Notes: generated by a model not told the origin, from the letters alone. Positions 2,810-37,323 are shown, numbered from the stretch's first letter. The stretch is DNA of 44,936 bases from a virus (IMGVR_UViG_3300045988_042992:1-44936); one strand, 5' to 3'. Translations and numbers: made by a program.

Positions 2810-3172
2810 GTGGCATTTTACGAAAACTACGTGAAACTGTGCAATTTGGCGGGGAAATCTCCGTCGGCAGTTGCGGTTGAGCTAAAACTTGGTAAACCCT
2901 CTGTTACACGGTGGAAGCACGGGGCAGTTCCCAGGGACACCACCATTTTGAAGATAGCGGGCTACTTTGGTGTTTCAGTGGAAGAACTGACTCAAGACAC
3001 AAAAAAAGCGCCCACCCCAACAACGGAGAGTGAGCGCAGTAGGCAGATTGCCGCGCGTATCAGTGAGATTGTTTGTCAGCTGTATCCGGAGACACAGGAG
3101 AGCTGTTTGCAGTACTTTGAGAGCTTGCTTGCACTGCAAAACGCAGCGCAAGGTCGAGATATTCAGGCTTGA
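2810..3172 (+). CDS. XRE-family HTH regulator (120 aa), CI-like repressor candidate
   Basis: GTG start after GGAGG. ...LCNLAGKSPSAVAVELKLGKPSVTRWKHG... is an HTH_3 motif. It is the first gene of the rightward operon that ends with the integrase. Confidence 0.75.
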   Translation: MAFYENYVKLCNLAGKSPSAVAVELKLGKPSVTRWKHGAVPRDTTILKIAGYFGVSVEELTQDTKKAPTPTTESERSRQIAARISEIVCQLYPETQESCLQYFESLLALQNAAQGRDIQA

Positions 3173-33031: not shown

Positions 33032-33211
33032 TCATTCTCCTTTCTCCAGCATATCAGCCGCCGCTCTCAAATCATCCGGCAGCATAATAGGTACTTCGTA
33101 GATATTTGCATCAGCCCATTCTGCATATTCTCGCAGGGTTTCGGCAATTTCTTTATGTGATGGCTTCACGGGGCCTCCTTTCACACCGCCACACGTCTCG
33201 TTGATGTTCAT
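33032..33211 (-). CDS. Small hypothetical protein (59 aa from ATG, or 45 aa from an internal GTG with a strong SD)
   Basis: Hand translation gives MNINETCGGVKGGPVKPSHKEIAETLREYAEWADANIYEVPIMLPDDLRAAADMLEKGE. ATGA overlap with the upstream ORF. Confidence 0.45.
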   Translation of the reverse strand: MNINETCGGVKGGPVKPSHKEIAETLREYAEWADANIYEVPIMLPDDLRAAADMLEKGE

Positions 33212-34587
33212 GTAATCGCTCCTCCAAACCTTAATTTGGTCACGGCAATCGGAAACTCCTCAATCTCGCTTGCCCAGATTGCCGTACCGGCACCGTGTAT
33301 ATTCTCCCAGCACAGTGGGAAGCCGCCGATGCCGTCGAACAGACTGCCGAGCGTTGCGCCCTCCGGCAGATAGGCCGCCATACGGCCCAACATCCAGCGC
33401 CAGAACGGCAGCGCGATGCTGTTGCCGAGTGCCTTGTACCGTGCGCTGTCGGAGGTCTTGCGCTTCTTGCCGGTGCTGTCGGTGTAGTCGCCGATGTCCG
33501 TCCAGCCGTCCGGAAATCCCTGCAGCCGTTCGCATTCCAGCGGCGTCAATCTACGCACCACCATGTTCTGCCCCGGGTATGTCTCCGCGTCCTCCCGGTA
33601 CGCACAGCCAGCATTTGCCCGCAGTGCGTGGCTCACGTCCTCACAAACGACTGCGTGGCTCACTTTACTTTCTCCTGCGCGTAATGCGTTCTTCGTTTCG
33701 CTTTCTGCCCAGTTTTCTTCCATCGCACTTTTGGGCTGGTATAAAATTGCTTGAGCATCGCGCATGGTGTTCAACGTTTGGCTGACTTCCTCCGCCATAA
33801 CACTGGCTTCGTTGGCTTGTCCGTTGCCGATACCGTATGCCACCAGCGGCACTTGATTGCCACCTGTTCCCATACGGGCTTGCAACGACGGGACCAGCTC
33901 TCCGCATTCGCGGATGACATCACAGGCGTGTGTCATGTCCAGCACCACCACTGACGGAGTTTGGTTCGTCCCGCTGGTTACCGCCGCCCGCGTGGGCGTA
34001 AAAATCGTCTGATCGTTCCCCTTGCCCAGCGTTCCGCTTTTCTCCGTCTGCACTAACGCGCCTTTTCCTCCCCCGTCACAGCTCCCCCTGATGCGGACTG
34101 CATACGATGTTGGGGCCTCTGTCGGCGCAGGGGCTTCCGTCCGCTCTTGCGGTGAGGCTCCTTGCGACTGCCGGATTAAAGCCGCTTTCAGCCGCTTCGG
34201 CAAATCCTTCCCCCGCCGCTCCGCTCTCCGCAATATCCCCTGACACGCTTTTGCGGTCAAAGAGTATTTCGGATGCGGTGTCTCCTCCAAAATCTGCGAC
34301 AACCGAGATACGACGACGGCGTTGGGGCACTCCCCAGTATTGCGCGTCGTGTGTTCGCCACGCCACGCTCCATCGTCCTCCCACTTCATCGTGGTATCCC
34401 CCCCAGGTAGGCCAGCCCTTTTCAGGCACTTCAATACCGGGGGCTTCCGGCTCGACGATTTTGATGATCTCTTCGAGCACGGCTGCGAAGTCTTTTCCTT
34501 TGTTGCTGCTAAAGGCTCCGGCCACGTTTTCCCACGCCATGTATCTCGGGCGAATAAGCTCTCCTGCCCTGCCAAGTCGTTTGTCAT
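33208..34587 (-). CDS. C5 DNA methyltransferase, frame B: TRD-like region, motifs IX and X, then motifs I-II at the C-terminus (true N-terminus uncertain)
   Basis: TLQARMGTGGNQVPLV; RRLTPLECERLQGFPDGWT; YKALGNSIALP; then LGSLFDGIGGFPL...WASEIEEFPIAV at the extreme C-terminus. Confidence 0.7.
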   Translation of the reverse strand: MTNDLAGQESLFARDTWRGKTWPEPLAATKEKTSQPCSKRSSKSSSRKPPVLKCLKRAGLPGGDTTMKWEDDGAWRGEHTTRNTGECPNAVVVSRLSQILEETPHPKYSLTAKACQGILRRAERRGKDLPKRLKAALIRQSQGASPQERTEAPAPTEAPTSYAVRIRGSCDGGGKGALVQTEKSGTLGKGNDQTIFTPTRAAVTSGTNQTPSVVVLDMTHACDVIRECGELVPSLQARMGTGGNQVPLVAYGIGNGQANEASVMAEEVSQTLNTMRDAQAILYQPKSAMEENWAESETKNALRAGESKVSHAVVCEDVSHALRANAGCAYREDAETYPGQNMVVRRLTPLECERLQGFPDGWTDIGDYTDSTGKKRKTSDSARYKALGNSIALPFWRWMLGRMAAYLPEGATLGSLFDGIGGFPLCWENIHGAGTAIWASEIEEFPIAVTKLRFGGAIT

Positions 34588-34768
34588 GCTCCCGCATCTC
34601 CTTTATCACTCTGATCTGCTCCATAAACAGACCGCTTCGCGCACCTGCGAGACCGGCACGCTTTCCCGCGATGCTCAGGTCCTGACACGGGCTTCCGCCC
34701 GTCACGCACCACACCGGCTCGATGGTGGCTCCGTCGAGCTTTGTAATATCACCGAGGTGTTGCATCAT
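34076..34768 (-). CDS. C5 DNA methyltransferase, frame A: motifs IV, VI and VIII only (no motif I)
   Basis: GGAGGTGGTGA-ATG start. GGSPCQDLSIAG; MAWENVAGAF; YWGVPQRRRRISVVADFGG. It overlaps frame B by 512 nt. Confidence 0.7.
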   Translation of the reverse strand: MMQHLGDITKLDGATIEPVWCVTGGSPCQDLSIAGKRAGLAGARSGLFMEQIRVIKEMREHDKRLGRAGELIRPRYMAWENVAGAFSSNKGKDFAAVLEEIIKIVEPEAPGIEVPEKGWPTWGGYHDEVGGRWSVAWRTHDAQYWGVPQRRRRISVVADFGGDTASEILFDRKSVSGDIAESGAAGEGFAEAAESGFNPAVARSLTARADGSPCADRGPNIVCSPHQGEL

Positions 34769-34821: not shown

Positions 34822-37323
34822 TCATTTTGTTTCCTCCATCAGGTCGAAAAGGGAAATGTTCATGTCTTCCTGCTCGTACTCCTTGAGATAGCCCACAGCA
34901 TCGCGGAAATACCCGTTGTTCAACTCGATGGTATACCCGCGCCGCCCGGCCTTCATCGCCTCCAGGGCGACAGTGCCAAGTCCGCCGAAGGGGTCCAGCA
35001 CCAATTCCCCGGGATTGCTGTAGCGATTGATAAGTCTGTCTACAATATCCAACTGGAGCGGGCAAACGTGCATTTGCTGGCGGCGCTGGCTCTGCGTGGT
35101 GTTAAGGGTGCGCATCCGGTTGATATCGTCCCACACCTGGTCTGTCCAACTCCCAGGCGCTGCCACCATGAACGTGGCGGGCAGTTTGTCGTCTGCGTCC
35201 AGTTCCTTCGCCATGCGGACATGTTCCGCGTAATCGTACACGGTCCCTCGGCTGTACTTCCGGTATGCCGCCTGAATCTTCCCGGTGTCCATGGCCATGA
35301 TCTCTTCTTTGGTCATGAGCCGGTCGCCAGATGAGCGCCAGAAACCGTGCGCGTCGATCTGCCATTGTGCCCGGGTGTATTCGTCCTTGCTCTTTACCAC
35401 CCTTTCATCTGCGTAAGCCTTGCTGCGGTCCGTAGGCAGCTTGCGGAACAGAAGAATGTATTCTGGGCAGCCCACCCCCATCTTTGAACCGTCCTTGCAC
35501 TGCTCTGTCCAGCCCAGCCGGTATGTCTGGTTGTTCTCTCGCACCACGTCCGTCACAACGGTAATCATGCCGAAATACGCAAACCCATGCTGCATGTAAT
35601 GCCGGATGCACATCGCGTGGAACGGCTCCATAGTGGGCATGCCCATGCCCGTGGCGTTGCCGAACAGAACCCGGTCCTTTACGTGGCAGCAGAACACACG
35701 CCCCGGCTTCAGTACGCGCAAGAGGTTTGGAGTCAGGTAGTCCATCTGCTCAAAGAATCTCCGTGTGTCCTCATTGTGGCCGAAATCGTTGTAACTGGGC
35801 GTGTACTCATAGTGGTTGGAAAACGGGATACTGGTCACAATAAGGTCCACGCTGTTTTCCGCCATCTTCGCCGTTTCCTCTACGCAGTCGTTATTCACGG
35901 CGATGAAATTCTTTCCCTTGATTTCCACTCTTTCAACTCCTATGCTCCGGCTCATTTTCTCCGTCTGGGCCTCGCCGGAAAGCCCATATTTCTGGACGAT
36001 CTCCCGCATTCGTGCCTGCATGTCGTTGTGTTGCTTCCACTTCTGCATCAGGACACGGTAGATGGGGTCCTCCGCTTCTGTGTAGATGATGTCGATAATC
36101 ACCTGTTCCGTCTGCAGGAACCTGTAAATTCGGTGGATTGCCTGAATGAAATCGTTGAACTCATAATCAATACCGATGAAGATAGCCCGGTGGCAATGTC
36201 TCTGGAAATTGCACCCGGAGCCAGATAGGCTCTTTTTCGTTGCAAACAAGCGTGTTCGGCCTTCCGAAAAATCAATTACCCGGCGCTCCCGCTCGTCGTA
36301 ATCCATGCTGCCGTAGATGTCCACGGTTTCCGGCAGGGATTTCTTTATTTCGTGGCGTTCCGCTTCCAGATCGTGCCACAAGATGAAATGTGCATCCTGG
36401 TCGCTGTCTACGATTCCTTTGGCTACGGCAACGCGCCGCTGAATGCTGTCACGCTTTTCCCGCGCGGCCTCCGCCAGAGATGTTGCCGCGTCGTTCATCA
36501 TTTTGTATTGCCCGTCCCGGTCCGTTTCCGTGCCGTAGTCGTCCGGAACGATATGCACCCGGACGTCCAACGGGGGAAGGTCATACCCGGTATCGTCATA
36601 TCCTAAATCGGAGGGCTTCCCCACGAACAGCGCCCACGAAGATACCCAGAGCCAGAATTCATCTTCTTTGTGCGGGTACAGGGTAAGGTTGTTTGCCTTG
36701 GTGCTGTCGCGCTGGAAAAAACGTGTCAGGGCCTGCCCCGTGTCCATGATCTCCAGATATCCAGCATAGTGGATAAGCTCCTTGTACCGATTGGGCGACG
36801 GTGTGGCCGTGCAGACCAGTTTATACTTCACGCCCCGGAACTTGGGCAGGAAGGTTTGATATGTCTTGCTCCCGAAACTGCGCAGCACGGACGCTTCATC
36901 CAGCGCTACAGCTGTGAACTGCGTTGGGTCGATGTCTCCGTCACGGACGCGCTCATAGTTTGTCATGGCGATCTCAGCGTCTGTTCCGGCCAAGTCCTGC
37001 ATCTTGGTGATGTATACCGGGGCCGGGTATCCCAAGATAGTTTCCGCGTCCCTGGCAAACTCTTGGCGGACACCCAACGGAAGGACGATCAACGCCCGTC
37101 CGCCGTCGTGCTTTACGGCCTGGTGACAGAACTCTATTTCTTGCACCGTCTTTCCGAGGCCGAAGGATTGGAATAAGGCCCGGTGCCCGCCGCGAAGCGC
37201 CCAAATCACAGAGTCCCGCTGGTGCGGTTTCAAGTTCGGGTTGATCTCCCTCGGGTCAACGCAAAACCCGCTCTCTTTGGCCAATACGATCTTGGATTTC
37301 AGAAATTCCAGATATGTTTCCAT
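34822..37323 (-). CDS. SNF2-family helicase fused to a beta-class N6A/N4C DNA methyltransferase (833 aa)
   Basis: Helicase motifs GLGKT, ALDEAS and QAIHRIYR. Methylase motif IV-like TSIPF precedes motif I DPFGGLGT. Confidence 0.85.
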   Translation of the reverse strand: METYLEFLKSKIVLAKESGFCVDPREINPNLKPHQRDSVIWALRGGHRALFQSFGLGKTVQEIEFCHQAVKHDGGRALIVLPLGVRQEFARDAETILGYPAPVYITKMQDLAGTDAEIAMTNYERVRDGDIDPTQFTAVALDEASVLRSFGSKTYQTFLPKFRGVKYKLVCTATPSPNRYKELIHYAGYLEIMDTGQALTRFFQRDSTKANNLTLYPHKEDEFWLWVSSWALFVGKPSDLGYDDTGYDLPPLDVRVHIVPDDYGTETDRDGQYKMMNDAATSLAEAAREKRDSIQRRVAVAKGIVDSDQDAHFILWHDLEAERHEIKKSLPETVDIYGSMDYDERERRVIDFSEGRTRLFATKKSLSGSGCNFQRHCHRAIFIGIDYEFNDFIQAIHRIYRFLQTEQVIIDIIYTEAEDPIYRVLMQKWKQHNDMQARMREIVQKYGLSGEAQTEKMSRSIGVERVEIKGKNFIAVNNDCVEETAKMAENSVDLIVTSIPFSNHYEYTPSYNDFGHNEDTRRFFEQMDYLTPNLLRVLKPGRVFCCHVKDRVLFGNATGMGMPTMEPFHAMCIRHYMQHGFAYFGMITVVTDVVRENNQTYRLGWTEQCKDGSKMGVGCPEYILLFRKLPTDRSKAYADERVVKSKDEYTRAQWQIDAHGFWRSSGDRLMTKEEIMAMDTGKIQAAYRKYSRGTVYDYAEHVRMAKELDADDKLPATFMVAAPGSWTDQVWDDINRMRTLNTTQSQRRQQMHVCPLQLDIVDRLINRYSNPGELVLDPFGGLGTVALEAMKAGRRGYTIELNNGYFRDAVGYLKEYEQEDMNISLFDLMEETK

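Follow-up and report, generated by a model that had tools for sequence, protein, structure and literature searches.

A circularly permuted phage cytosine-5 methyltransferase divided between two overlapping reading frames: a probable two-subunit form set by a short G tract

The window, a stretch of viral DNA analysed over its whole length of 44,936 nucleotides (nt; IMGVR_UViG_3300045988_042992:1-44936), encodes a terminase, a portal, a major head protein, a tape measure, a DnaB helicase and a replication initiator, which identifies it as a tailed phage. In its replication module, on the minus strand, lies a predicted DNA cytosine-5 (C5) methyltransferase that is divided between two open reading frames (ORFs), ORF A (alpha) and ORF B (beta) (Table 1). 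The ORFs overlap by 512 nt, with the ATG of beta lying 181 nt inside alpha. This arrangement had been described in a first-pass annotation made from the sequence alone; its coordinates and +1 offset were reproduced, as were the positions given for a G7 run, for an internal ATG (34389) and for the GGAGG that precedes ORF A. The predicted C-terminus of alpha reads ..SPHQGEL. The gene call supplied by the source for ORF B (P0419, 281 amino acids (aa), Joint Genome Institute (JGI)) starts at a GTG at 34053, just past the ORF A stop, and as a result the segment of ORF B that we term the B core is lost from the annotation. An exact look-up of the 459-aa ORF B product returned no record.

Table 1. 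Features of the methyltransferase locus and its flanks, in the order of transcription (TRD, target recognition domain)
Feature	Position	Strand	Frame	Details
SNF2/N6-methylase fusion gene	34822-37323	-		833 aa; SNF2-type helicase domain and N6/N4 DNA methylase (PF00176, PF00271, PF01555)
Shine-Dalgarno motif GGAGG	34779-34775	-		6 nt 5' of the ORF A ATG (34768), by direct reading
ORF A (alpha)	34768..34076	-	A	230 aa; motifs III-IV-V-VI-VII-VIII, then a tail, predicted to be unconstrained, across the frame-B core
Motif IV, GGSPCQ	34682..34699	-	A	Contains the catalytic Cys
Shine-Dalgarno-like motif AAGGAG	34603-34598	-		10 nt 5' of the ORF B ATG (34587-34585), within alpha codons KEMRE
ORF B (beta)	34587..33208	-	B	459 aa, offset by +1 from ORF A; a leader lying over alpha, B core, Pro/Glu/Ala/Thr linker, TRD array, IX, X, I, II
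Motif VI, ENV	34523..34531	-	A	
Upstream G7 run	34404-34398	-		Frame A reading TGG GGG GGA (W G G)
Motif VIII, QRRRR	34310..34324	-	A	Frame B reads the same bases as ..NAVVV..
B core, SRLSQILEETPHPKYSLTAKACQGILRRAERRGKDLPKRLKAALIRQ	34168..34308	-	B	Frame-B residues ~94-140; predicted helical, with invariant columns; selection on frame B, not A
Frame-toggle tract GGGGGAG	34088-34082	-		The extra base relative to single-ORF relatives aligns at 34083
Variable region	33568..34086	-		Several TRD-like modules: ..GGKGALVQTEKSGTLG.., ..PSLQARMGTGGNQVPL.., ..EVSQTLNTM.., ..DVSHALRAN..
ORF A stop, TGA	34076..34078	-	A	Two codons past the toggle tract
Motif IX, RRLTPLECERLQGFP	33511..33555	-	B	
Motif X, YKALGNSIALP	33406..33438	-	B	
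Motifs I-II, LGSLFDGIGGFPL...WASEIEEFPIAVTKLRF	33226..33351	-	B	C-terminus of ORF B; invariant in alignments A1 and A4
Small ORF	33032-33211	-		59 aa

The C5-methyltransferase motifs I (FxGxGG), IV (PCQ), VI (ENV), VIII (QxRxR), IX (RxxTxxE) and X (GNS/A) are all present across the two ORFs and are invariant in alignments A1 and A4. They are not arranged in the canonical I-to-X order in one polypeptide; the order is III-IV-VI-VIII in ORF A and TRD-IX-X-I-II in ORF B. Searches with PF00145 matched separate parts of the profile, namely positions 46-131 with residues 4-102 of ORF A (E = 2.6e-20) and positions 233-314 with residues 289-395 of ORF B (E = 3.6e-11), while each ORF alone scores under the cut-off of TIGR00675. 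The permutation was mapped by aligning the closest intact homolog (P0001, 518 aa) to M.HhaI with phmmer. Specifically, P0001 residues 6-59 align with HhaI residues 59-112 (III-IV-V) and residues 400-422 with residues 268-290 (IX); residues 141-157 align with residues 153-169 (VIII) at a domain score of -2.0 bits, non-significant alone, and residues 474-514 with residues 16-54 (I-II) at 0.3 bits, far below significance alone. This mapping places the N-terminus of the chain between motifs II and III, with I-II at its end, and the circular permutation proposed in the first-pass annotation is upheld both by the map and by the family-wide motif order. The window locus is thus predicted to encode a phage DNA C5-methyltransferase of a natural permuted family with its N-terminus between II and III. 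The TRD-like, TL-containing modules are gained or lost as whole blocks among the relatives (412-674 aa) in alignments A1 and A4. Multispecific C5-methyltransferases of Bacillus phages (SPR / phi3T) carry tandem TRDs between VIII and IX, each conferring one specificity, and the variable region of the window may be of a comparable kind.

The permutation is a property of a large family that comprises hundreds of gut-phage and Clostridia loci. The two ORFs joined in silico match upwards of 100 proteins encoded by single ORFs (418-674 aa; identity up to 96%), many of them over the whole query. In 12 of 12 aligned single-ORF relatives the chain begins with motif III/IV (MMQHLGDITK.. or MVHLGDICK..) and closes with LGSLFDGIGG..WASEIEEFPIAVTKLRFGGAIT. 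Relatives of the closest intact homolog occur at 293 IMG/VR loci and in several Oscillospiraceae/Clostridia metagenome-assembled genomes (MAGs), and motif I lies near the C-terminus, after IX-X, in every complete inspected ORF in which it is identifiable. A search of the GenBank phage collection gave four 'Bacteriophage sp.' records from human faeces, which carry no annotation. Upstream of ORF A there is no relic of motifs I-II, and the gap between ORF A and the SNF2/N6-methylase fusion gene ahead of it is just 53 nt.

Among 20,677 REBASE entries searched by Albert et al. 2018, natural permuted C5-methylases numbered 27 and formed a single type, whose N-terminus falls between VIII and the TRD (PMC5944983). 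The family described here shares with the natural Type H enzymes (M.BssHII, M.Alw26I, M2.Eco31I, M.Esp3I and M2.BsaI; PMC5944983) the joining of X to I in one chain, but differs in the position of the N-terminus, which lies in the variable region in Type H and between II and III here, single-chain relatives starting at motif III (MMQHLGDITK..GGSPCQ) and ending with I-II. The same topology, with X joined to I and the N-terminus between II and III, was built in the laboratory, and these permutants were by far the most active of those engineered (PMC5944983); they derive from CG-specific, single-TRD parents and have no overlapping frames, B core or G-tract switch. A description of a natural II/III-permuted family was not found in the literature, and the present family is, by its motif order, a natural example of this second C5-methylase permutation topology. 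Plant DRM2, in which the break lies between motifs V and VI, is likewise a permuted C5-methyltransferase in which X precedes I, and the DRM structure chain 4onj_A aligns over query residues 404-484, from the motif IX region towards motif I; in contrast to the window enzyme, DRM2 is eukaryotic and single-chain and has no overlapping gene.

Frame B is open far upstream of the point at which ORF A ends. Across the 135 codons from -85 to +50 relative to the motif VIII glutamine, 133 of 154 unique family sequences contain no frame-B stop (mean 0.29 stops), whereas the third frame (frame C) is stop-free in 0 of 154 (mean 6.85 stops); further upstream, stops in the +1 frame number 8.8 per 135 codons. 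Of the 154 sequences, 151 have an ATG after the upstream frame-B stop, usually 84-89 codons before motif VIII, corresponding to 34587 in the window, and GGAG or GAGG stands 5-18 nt upstream of this ATG in 131 of the 151. The ATG at 34389 is less widely conserved than that at 34587.

Comparison of homologs reveals constraint in both frames, each over its own part of the overlap. In ORF-A codons 29-150, diversity at codon position 3 greatly exceeds that at position 1, which exceeds that at position 2, the signature of frame A; in codons ~165-190 the order is position 1 > position 2 > position 3, the signature of frame B, because the third position of B is the first of A. Furthermore, single-base differences were classed as silent or replacing in both frames. 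Differences silent in A and replacing in B account for 84% in codons 29-118, 74% in codons 139-164 and 17% in codons 165-190, and those replacing in A and silent in B for 6%, 24% and 72%, respectively. The flip holds separately in 75 single-chain relatives (71%) and in 26 two-chain relatives (77%), and codons ~157-170 hardly vary in either frame. The G+C content at third codon positions (GC3), which a hand count had put at ~68% for frame B and ~51% for frame A, is 0.706 and 0.490 over the same stretch, in keeping with the claim that frame B is at least as coding as frame A; outside the overlap, in their own frames, ORF A has a GC3 of 0.695 and ORF B of 0.683. The first-pass annotation had named a lack of frame-B conservation among homologs as evidence against its reading, and the opposite is observed: frame B is, to judge from these substitution patterns, under purifying selection across the family. 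The overlap consists of an unconstrained beta leader (~90 residues) over the conserved alpha core, followed by an unconstrained, probably dispensable alpha tail over the conserved beta core. Predicted frame-B peptides include LSQILEETPHPK and ACQGILR. The conserved frame-B ORF, its ATG and Shine-Dalgarno-like motif, the selection on its core and its abundant homologs speak for the earlier proposal of two genuinely overlapping genes, except that the start is likely 34587 rather than the Met at 34389.

The frame-B peptide matches 768 short gene calls that correspond to the nested ORF, and a profile built from it finds 4293 cluster representatives at E <= 1e-3; among the best 150 of these 4293, the domain occupies residues ~8-150 of proteins of 97-605 aa, that is, it lies near the N-terminus. 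The long matches are ordered B domain, TRDs, IX, X, I-II. Database proteins that share the architecture of ORF B are numerous (412-605 aa), and a search with ORF B itself retrieves many proteins of 412-558 aa spanning 85-100% of it. A distant beta protein (P0256) has an ordinary linker between B core and TRDs; no relatives of it were found in viral contigs. The nested B ORF is present in 79 genome loci, from taxa including Oscillospiraceae, Lachnospiraceae, Christensenella and Flintibacter muris, and lies inside both canonical-order and permuted methylase genes. In single-chain relatives it is nested as an ORF of 130-190 aa within the methylase gene. About 8 of the 79 loci have an alpha/beta configuration; in three of them (L231, L242 and L249) alpha comprises I-VIII, and beta comprises the leader, B core, TRDs, IX and X, with ordinary linkers. 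One beta-type protein found in the profile search (P0325, 605 aa) is interrupted after motif IX, within GFP..WTDIG, by a segment that resembles an HNH/AP2 endonuclease (..HRIVWIAQHGIIPNGYVIDHKNNNKKDNRIENLQMLTPAENS..).

Two other interpretations of the B core were considered. A resemblance to the canonical post-VIII element 'LxDILE..KYYLS' was unsupported by a Pfam scan and is at most a lead. A single polypeptide that passes into the B core by a frame change once motif VIII has been read was rejected: it is impossible in single-chain relatives, in which the TRD is in frame A, and gives no reason for frame B to stay open over a further 88 codons upstream.

The division of the enzyme comes down to one base. 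At the toggle tract, single-ORF relatives read CAGGGGGGC and the window reads CAGGGGGAGC (34090-34081); relative to the intact gene of locus L001, the only indel is one extra base (window CAGGGGGAGCTGTGA, 34090-34076; L001 CAGGGGGGCTGTGA). The junction reads ..CSPHQG/GCDGGGKG.., and ORF B across the tract reads GSCDGGGK. Tract alleles G6C or G7 place the TRD array in frame A, giving a single chain (A-fused), while G7C or G8 place it in frame B, giving two chains (B-fused); the window has a G7C-type tract with a G-to-A interruption (G5AG). The first-pass suggestion of one polypeptide requiring a +1 shift is borne out insofar as single-ORF relatives one base apart exist, but the site it favoured, ...NIV/YAV near 34100, was rejected, the homolog alignment putting the frame change at 34083-34088.

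Alleles were counted as unique sequences retrieved with a tract-independent 15-mer and protein search, and were divided into Type 1, which has the same upstream segment as the window, and Type 2, in which the upstream segment is 70 nt shorter (70 = 3n+1). Type 1 comprises 27 B-fused sequences (G7C, G8, G7A and the G5AGC of the window), 20 A-fused sequences (G6C or G7) and 2 in the third frame; Type 2 comprises 1, 16 and 0, respectively. Frame states interleave among near-identical sequences: B-fused L099 and A-fused L144 are 100% identical across the 653 nt upstream, and B-fused L129 and A-fused L028 are 99.85% identical. All complete B-fused loci retain an intact TRD-IX-X-I-II ORF. A longer G7/G8 run 310 nt upstream (34404-34398 in the window), which serves as an internal control for homopolymer noise, is frame-shifted in only 2 of ~73 unique sequences; apart from these and the database proteins P0386 and P0429, slippage at that run, another of the earlier suggestions, finds no counterpart among the relatives. 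Where A-to-B joins do occur at the upstream run (P0386, P0429, L013 and L132), they read ..WPTWGG/TTMRWEDDG.. and give ORFs without motifs VII-VIII; the order in P0386 is TRD-IX-X-I-II-III-IV-VI, then the B domain.

As in phasevarion methyltransferases, close relatives thus have in-ORF G tracts of different length, which alter the frame (G6C/G7 versus G7C/G8, at 99.85-100% upstream identity). The differences are that the tract is short (G6/G7, and G5AG in the window), that third-frame, truly off alleles are rare, and that the other frame also codes and is conserved, so that the switch would rewire subunit topology instead of just truncating the protein. Nothing specific on this overlap, or on a phase-variable phage C5-methylase, was found in the literature.

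A stretch of ~45 nt upstream of the tract, TATGCAGTCCGCATCAGGGGGG(G)CTGTGACGGAGGAGGAAAAGG (within 34110-34190), is conserved at the nucleotide level, and intact relatives read it in two frames (CSPHQGG or YAVRIRGG). Specifically, Type 2 reads the conserved TATGCAGTCCGCATCAGGGGGGGC in the other frame, as YAVRIRGG instead of CSPHQGG, and is in frame with G7C. The 70-nt (3n+1) segment that separates Type 1 from Type 2 lies just upstream of this stretch, which may be a joint at which recombination links the catalytic part to the TRD cassettes.

We favour the reading in which the window holds a two-subunit (alpha/beta) configuration of the permuted C5-methylase, set by the tract, with both chains made and active together, and assign it a probability of roughly 55%. 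Of the three readings offered in the first-pass annotation, two subunits from genuinely overlapping genes is the best supported. In the proposed mechanism, alpha would supply III-VIII, the catalytic half, and beta, starting at its own ATG (34587), would bring the B core, TRDs, IX, X and I-II. One tract length puts the TRD/IX/X/I/II module in the alpha frame, which would yield a single chain accompanied by a short nested B protein; with the other length the module is in the beta frame, which would yield two chains, as in the window, and both tract states would be functional. Alpha and beta would associate non-covalently into an active enzyme, as their precedents M.AquI and the engineered II/III-permuted M.MpeI fragments suggest, and this enzyme may methylate phage DNA at several targets and thereby allow escape from host restriction. 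The interrupted G5AG tract should stabilise the two-chain state in the window.

Natural two-polypeptide C5-methyltransferases are represented by M.AquI and M.EcoHK31I, and detached fragments of several other C5-methyltransferases complement each other (PMC3404938; PMC2836561). The break in M.AquI falls between motif VIII and the variable region; one subunit is catalytic, the other carries (part of) the TRD together with IX-X, and activity requires both (PMC3404938). The window likewise has two ORFs divided after motif VIII, each with its own ATG and Shine-Dalgarno-like motif and each putatively translated, and L231, L242 and L249 have exactly the I-VIII / TRD-IX-X division of M.AquI. In contrast to M.AquI, the TRD-bearing subunit of the window has I-II at its C-terminus, owing to the permutation, the genes overlap by 512 nt with a conserved B core inside the overlap, and in relatives a G tract allows a change to the single-chain form. 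In M.EcoHK31I, the beta polypeptide is encoded within alpha in another frame (PMC2836561). The nested +1 B ORF of the single-chain relatives, open and under purifying selection, would encode a second polypeptide of this kind, but the beta of M.EcoHK31I supplies motif IX, whereas the nested B ORF carries no recognised methylase motif and no PF00145 or PDB match, motif IX lying in the TRD-bearing frame; in the window, moreover, B is fused to the entire TRD-IX-X-I-II segment. The closest parallel to the division itself is engineered: the fragments Mpe[62-279] and Mpe[192-61], from a II/III permutant of M.MpeI, complement each other (PMC5944983), and this pair, [III-VIII..] and [TRD-IX-X-I-II], corresponds to the division between ORF A and ORF B.

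Several points weigh against the two-subunit reading. We infer the translation of ORF B and its assembly with alpha from evolution alone. For the window taken by itself, 15% of synonymous-codon shuffles are also stop-free in frame B, so the openness signal is a family-level one. The census sequences are related, and their counts are therefore not independent events. Type 2 relatives carry a G7 tract yet are almost never B-fused (16 versus 1), and the tract toggle is accordingly lineage-specific and not fully explained. The two-chain form is a minority outside the lineage of the window, ~85% of the loci in the wider clade being single-chain (A-fused). The B core is without a Pfam, PDB sequence or PDB fold match: a Pfam scan of the B peptide (E <= 10) gave zero matches, a profile search of PDB with the B alignment gave one chance match (E = 1.6), and Foldseek comparison of the B-peptide model with PDB gave nothing under E = 4.6. 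The AlphaFold model of the B peptide has a mean predicted local distance difference test (pLDDT) score of 62.6, with only three short helices confident (95-99, 112-125 and 131-142; pLDDT 76-89), and the model of the whole ORF B alone, from a 31-sequence alignment, is uninformative (mean pLDDT 36). A broader proposal, that a whole clade of Clostridia and phage C5-methylases, of canonical order as well as permuted, is obligately two-polypeptide, with the nested +1 gene supplying a required B-core helical element and the G tract acting as a selected topological switch, appears doubtful.

The window could instead carry a phase-OFF or recently inactivated allele, in which case the single chain would be the functional enzyme, the +1 change in the tract would truncate it, and the C-terminal 290 residues of ORF B would be a stranded remainder; the nested B protein may even then be real, with the methylase off in this phage. 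The window is indeed one base from intact single-ORF relatives of up to 96% identity, homopolymer length varies among near-identical relatives in the classic pattern of slipped-strand switching, and the wider clade is mostly single-chain. However, null alleles should be no rarer in the third frame, or at the second G run, and third-frame alleles are nearly absent (2 versus 28) while the longer upstream run of the same genes is almost never shifted, which makes a plain null allele, and likewise the simple pseudogene suggested earlier, unlikely. Frame B, to judge from the selection on it, would be translated from its own conserved start, and TRD-IX-X-I-II would then be made within beta anyway; other lineages have stable beta chains without any G tract. 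In addition, contingency loci that switch at a high rate would be expected to have tracts longer than G6/G7, and the interruption of the window tract argues against rapid switching in this phage, as far as its sequence can tell. We regard an OFF allele as possible but on balance unlikely. Even less can be said for an assembly or sequencing artefact, that is, a true G6C sequence with one ordinary ORF, which we consider exceedingly improbable although a single homopolymer base separates the window from its nearest intact relative and the exact 459-aa product has no other record. Independent assemblies supply 27 unique sequences in this frame state, many database proteins share the architecture of ORF B, and the G5-A-G-C of the window is a substitution inside a G7C-type allele and not a simple miscount. 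The allele census and the longer G run 310 nt upstream, unaffected in these assemblies, together make the assembly error raised in the first-pass annotation very unlikely.

Recoding would produce a full-length single chain from the two-frame allele, through a +1 slip of tRNA-Gly on the G run (GGG G) or slippage during transcription, with the TGA two codons downstream as a pause, and would give the trans-frame peptide ..SPHQGSCDGGGK. A tRNA-Gly on GGG (34088-34086) can re-pair perfectly at 34087-34085, after which AGC TGT GAC is the TRD frame, and the G7C allele (CAG GGG GGG CUG UGA C) offers a G-rich stretch and a UGA-C stop that loosely resemble the prfB site; the frame state is, besides, frequent and maintained. 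The slip-compatible GGG-G and nearby TGA are, however, not fixed among relatives, which toggle at the DNA level and are in many cases in frame, so recoding is unnecessary. The window tract is cut to G5, which should reduce slippage, and recoding leaves both the selection on the frame-B core upstream and the conserved frame-B start unexplained; we judge it improbable. Frame B might also be untranslated, its openness and conservation being a by-product of frame-A constraint or of a nucleic-acid signal, with ORF B beginning past the ORF A stop as in the 281-aa call. The leader and the PNAVVVSRLSQ stretch do mirror conserved alpha motifs VI and VIII, which makes their conservation partly a by-product, the shuffles indicate that a single sequence can be stop-free by chance, and gene callers place the start at the GTG at 34053 (P0419). 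Yet the differences in A codons 165-190 are mostly silent in B and replacing in A, a codon periodicity that fits translation and not an RNA or DNA signal, GC3 there matches coding GC3 in frame B only, and the contrast with frame C among divergent sequences and the conservation of the ATG and the Shine-Dalgarno-like motif also stand against an untranslated frame, which is highly improbable.

The SNF2/N6-methylase neighbour also precedes the C5-methylase in the five related loci with gene tables that were examined (L001-L004, and L005, which is cut at the contig end). At the other end, the start codon of the 59-aa ORF overlaps the ORF B stop as ATGA (..ATT ACA TGA / ATG AAC..), which suggests translational coupling; L001 has a 59-residue gene in the equivalent position, and the 59-aa ORF has no Pfam match.

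A separate feature was observed at motif IV in 17 IMG/VR relatives (at about positions 3075-3090; L019, L024, L028, L031, L033, L034, L049, L063, L064, L066, L072, L073, L075, L077, L082, L090 and L093), which carry a 4-nt insertion, TAGA (TAGC in L028), right after the codon for the catalytic Cys (GGT GGT TCA CCT TGT [TAGA] CAG GAT). The insertion, absent from the window, ends the first ORF at ..GGSPC*. The remaining gene is in the +1 frame from an upstream ATG (MGQRLNPFGVLQVVHLVRQDLSIAG..), and this downstream frame is intact to the end in 17 of 17 carriers, with varying TRD content. These loci could hold an inactive enzyme, one assembled from three pieces, or a recoding site.

The family would add a second natural circular-permutation topology to the C5-methyltransferases, one that coincides with the topology most active in engineering, and evolved II/III-permuted split halves are the type of scaffold wanted for targeted-methylation tools. 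The overlap is unusually long for a phage or bacterial enzyme gene on the same strand, and purifying selection clearly switches frame within it; it is conserved across thousands of protein clusters, yet is overlooked by standard gene callers. If the obligate-nested-subunit reading is true, the tract would move TRD/IX/X/I/II between the catalytic and B-core chains, altering activity or specificity and not merely switching the enzyme off. Rewiring of subunit connectivity by a G tract, as opposed to mere truncation, would be a new route of variation for a DNA-modification enzyme of mobile elements, and methylase 'pseudogenes' of this kind in gut phages and MAGs may be functional.

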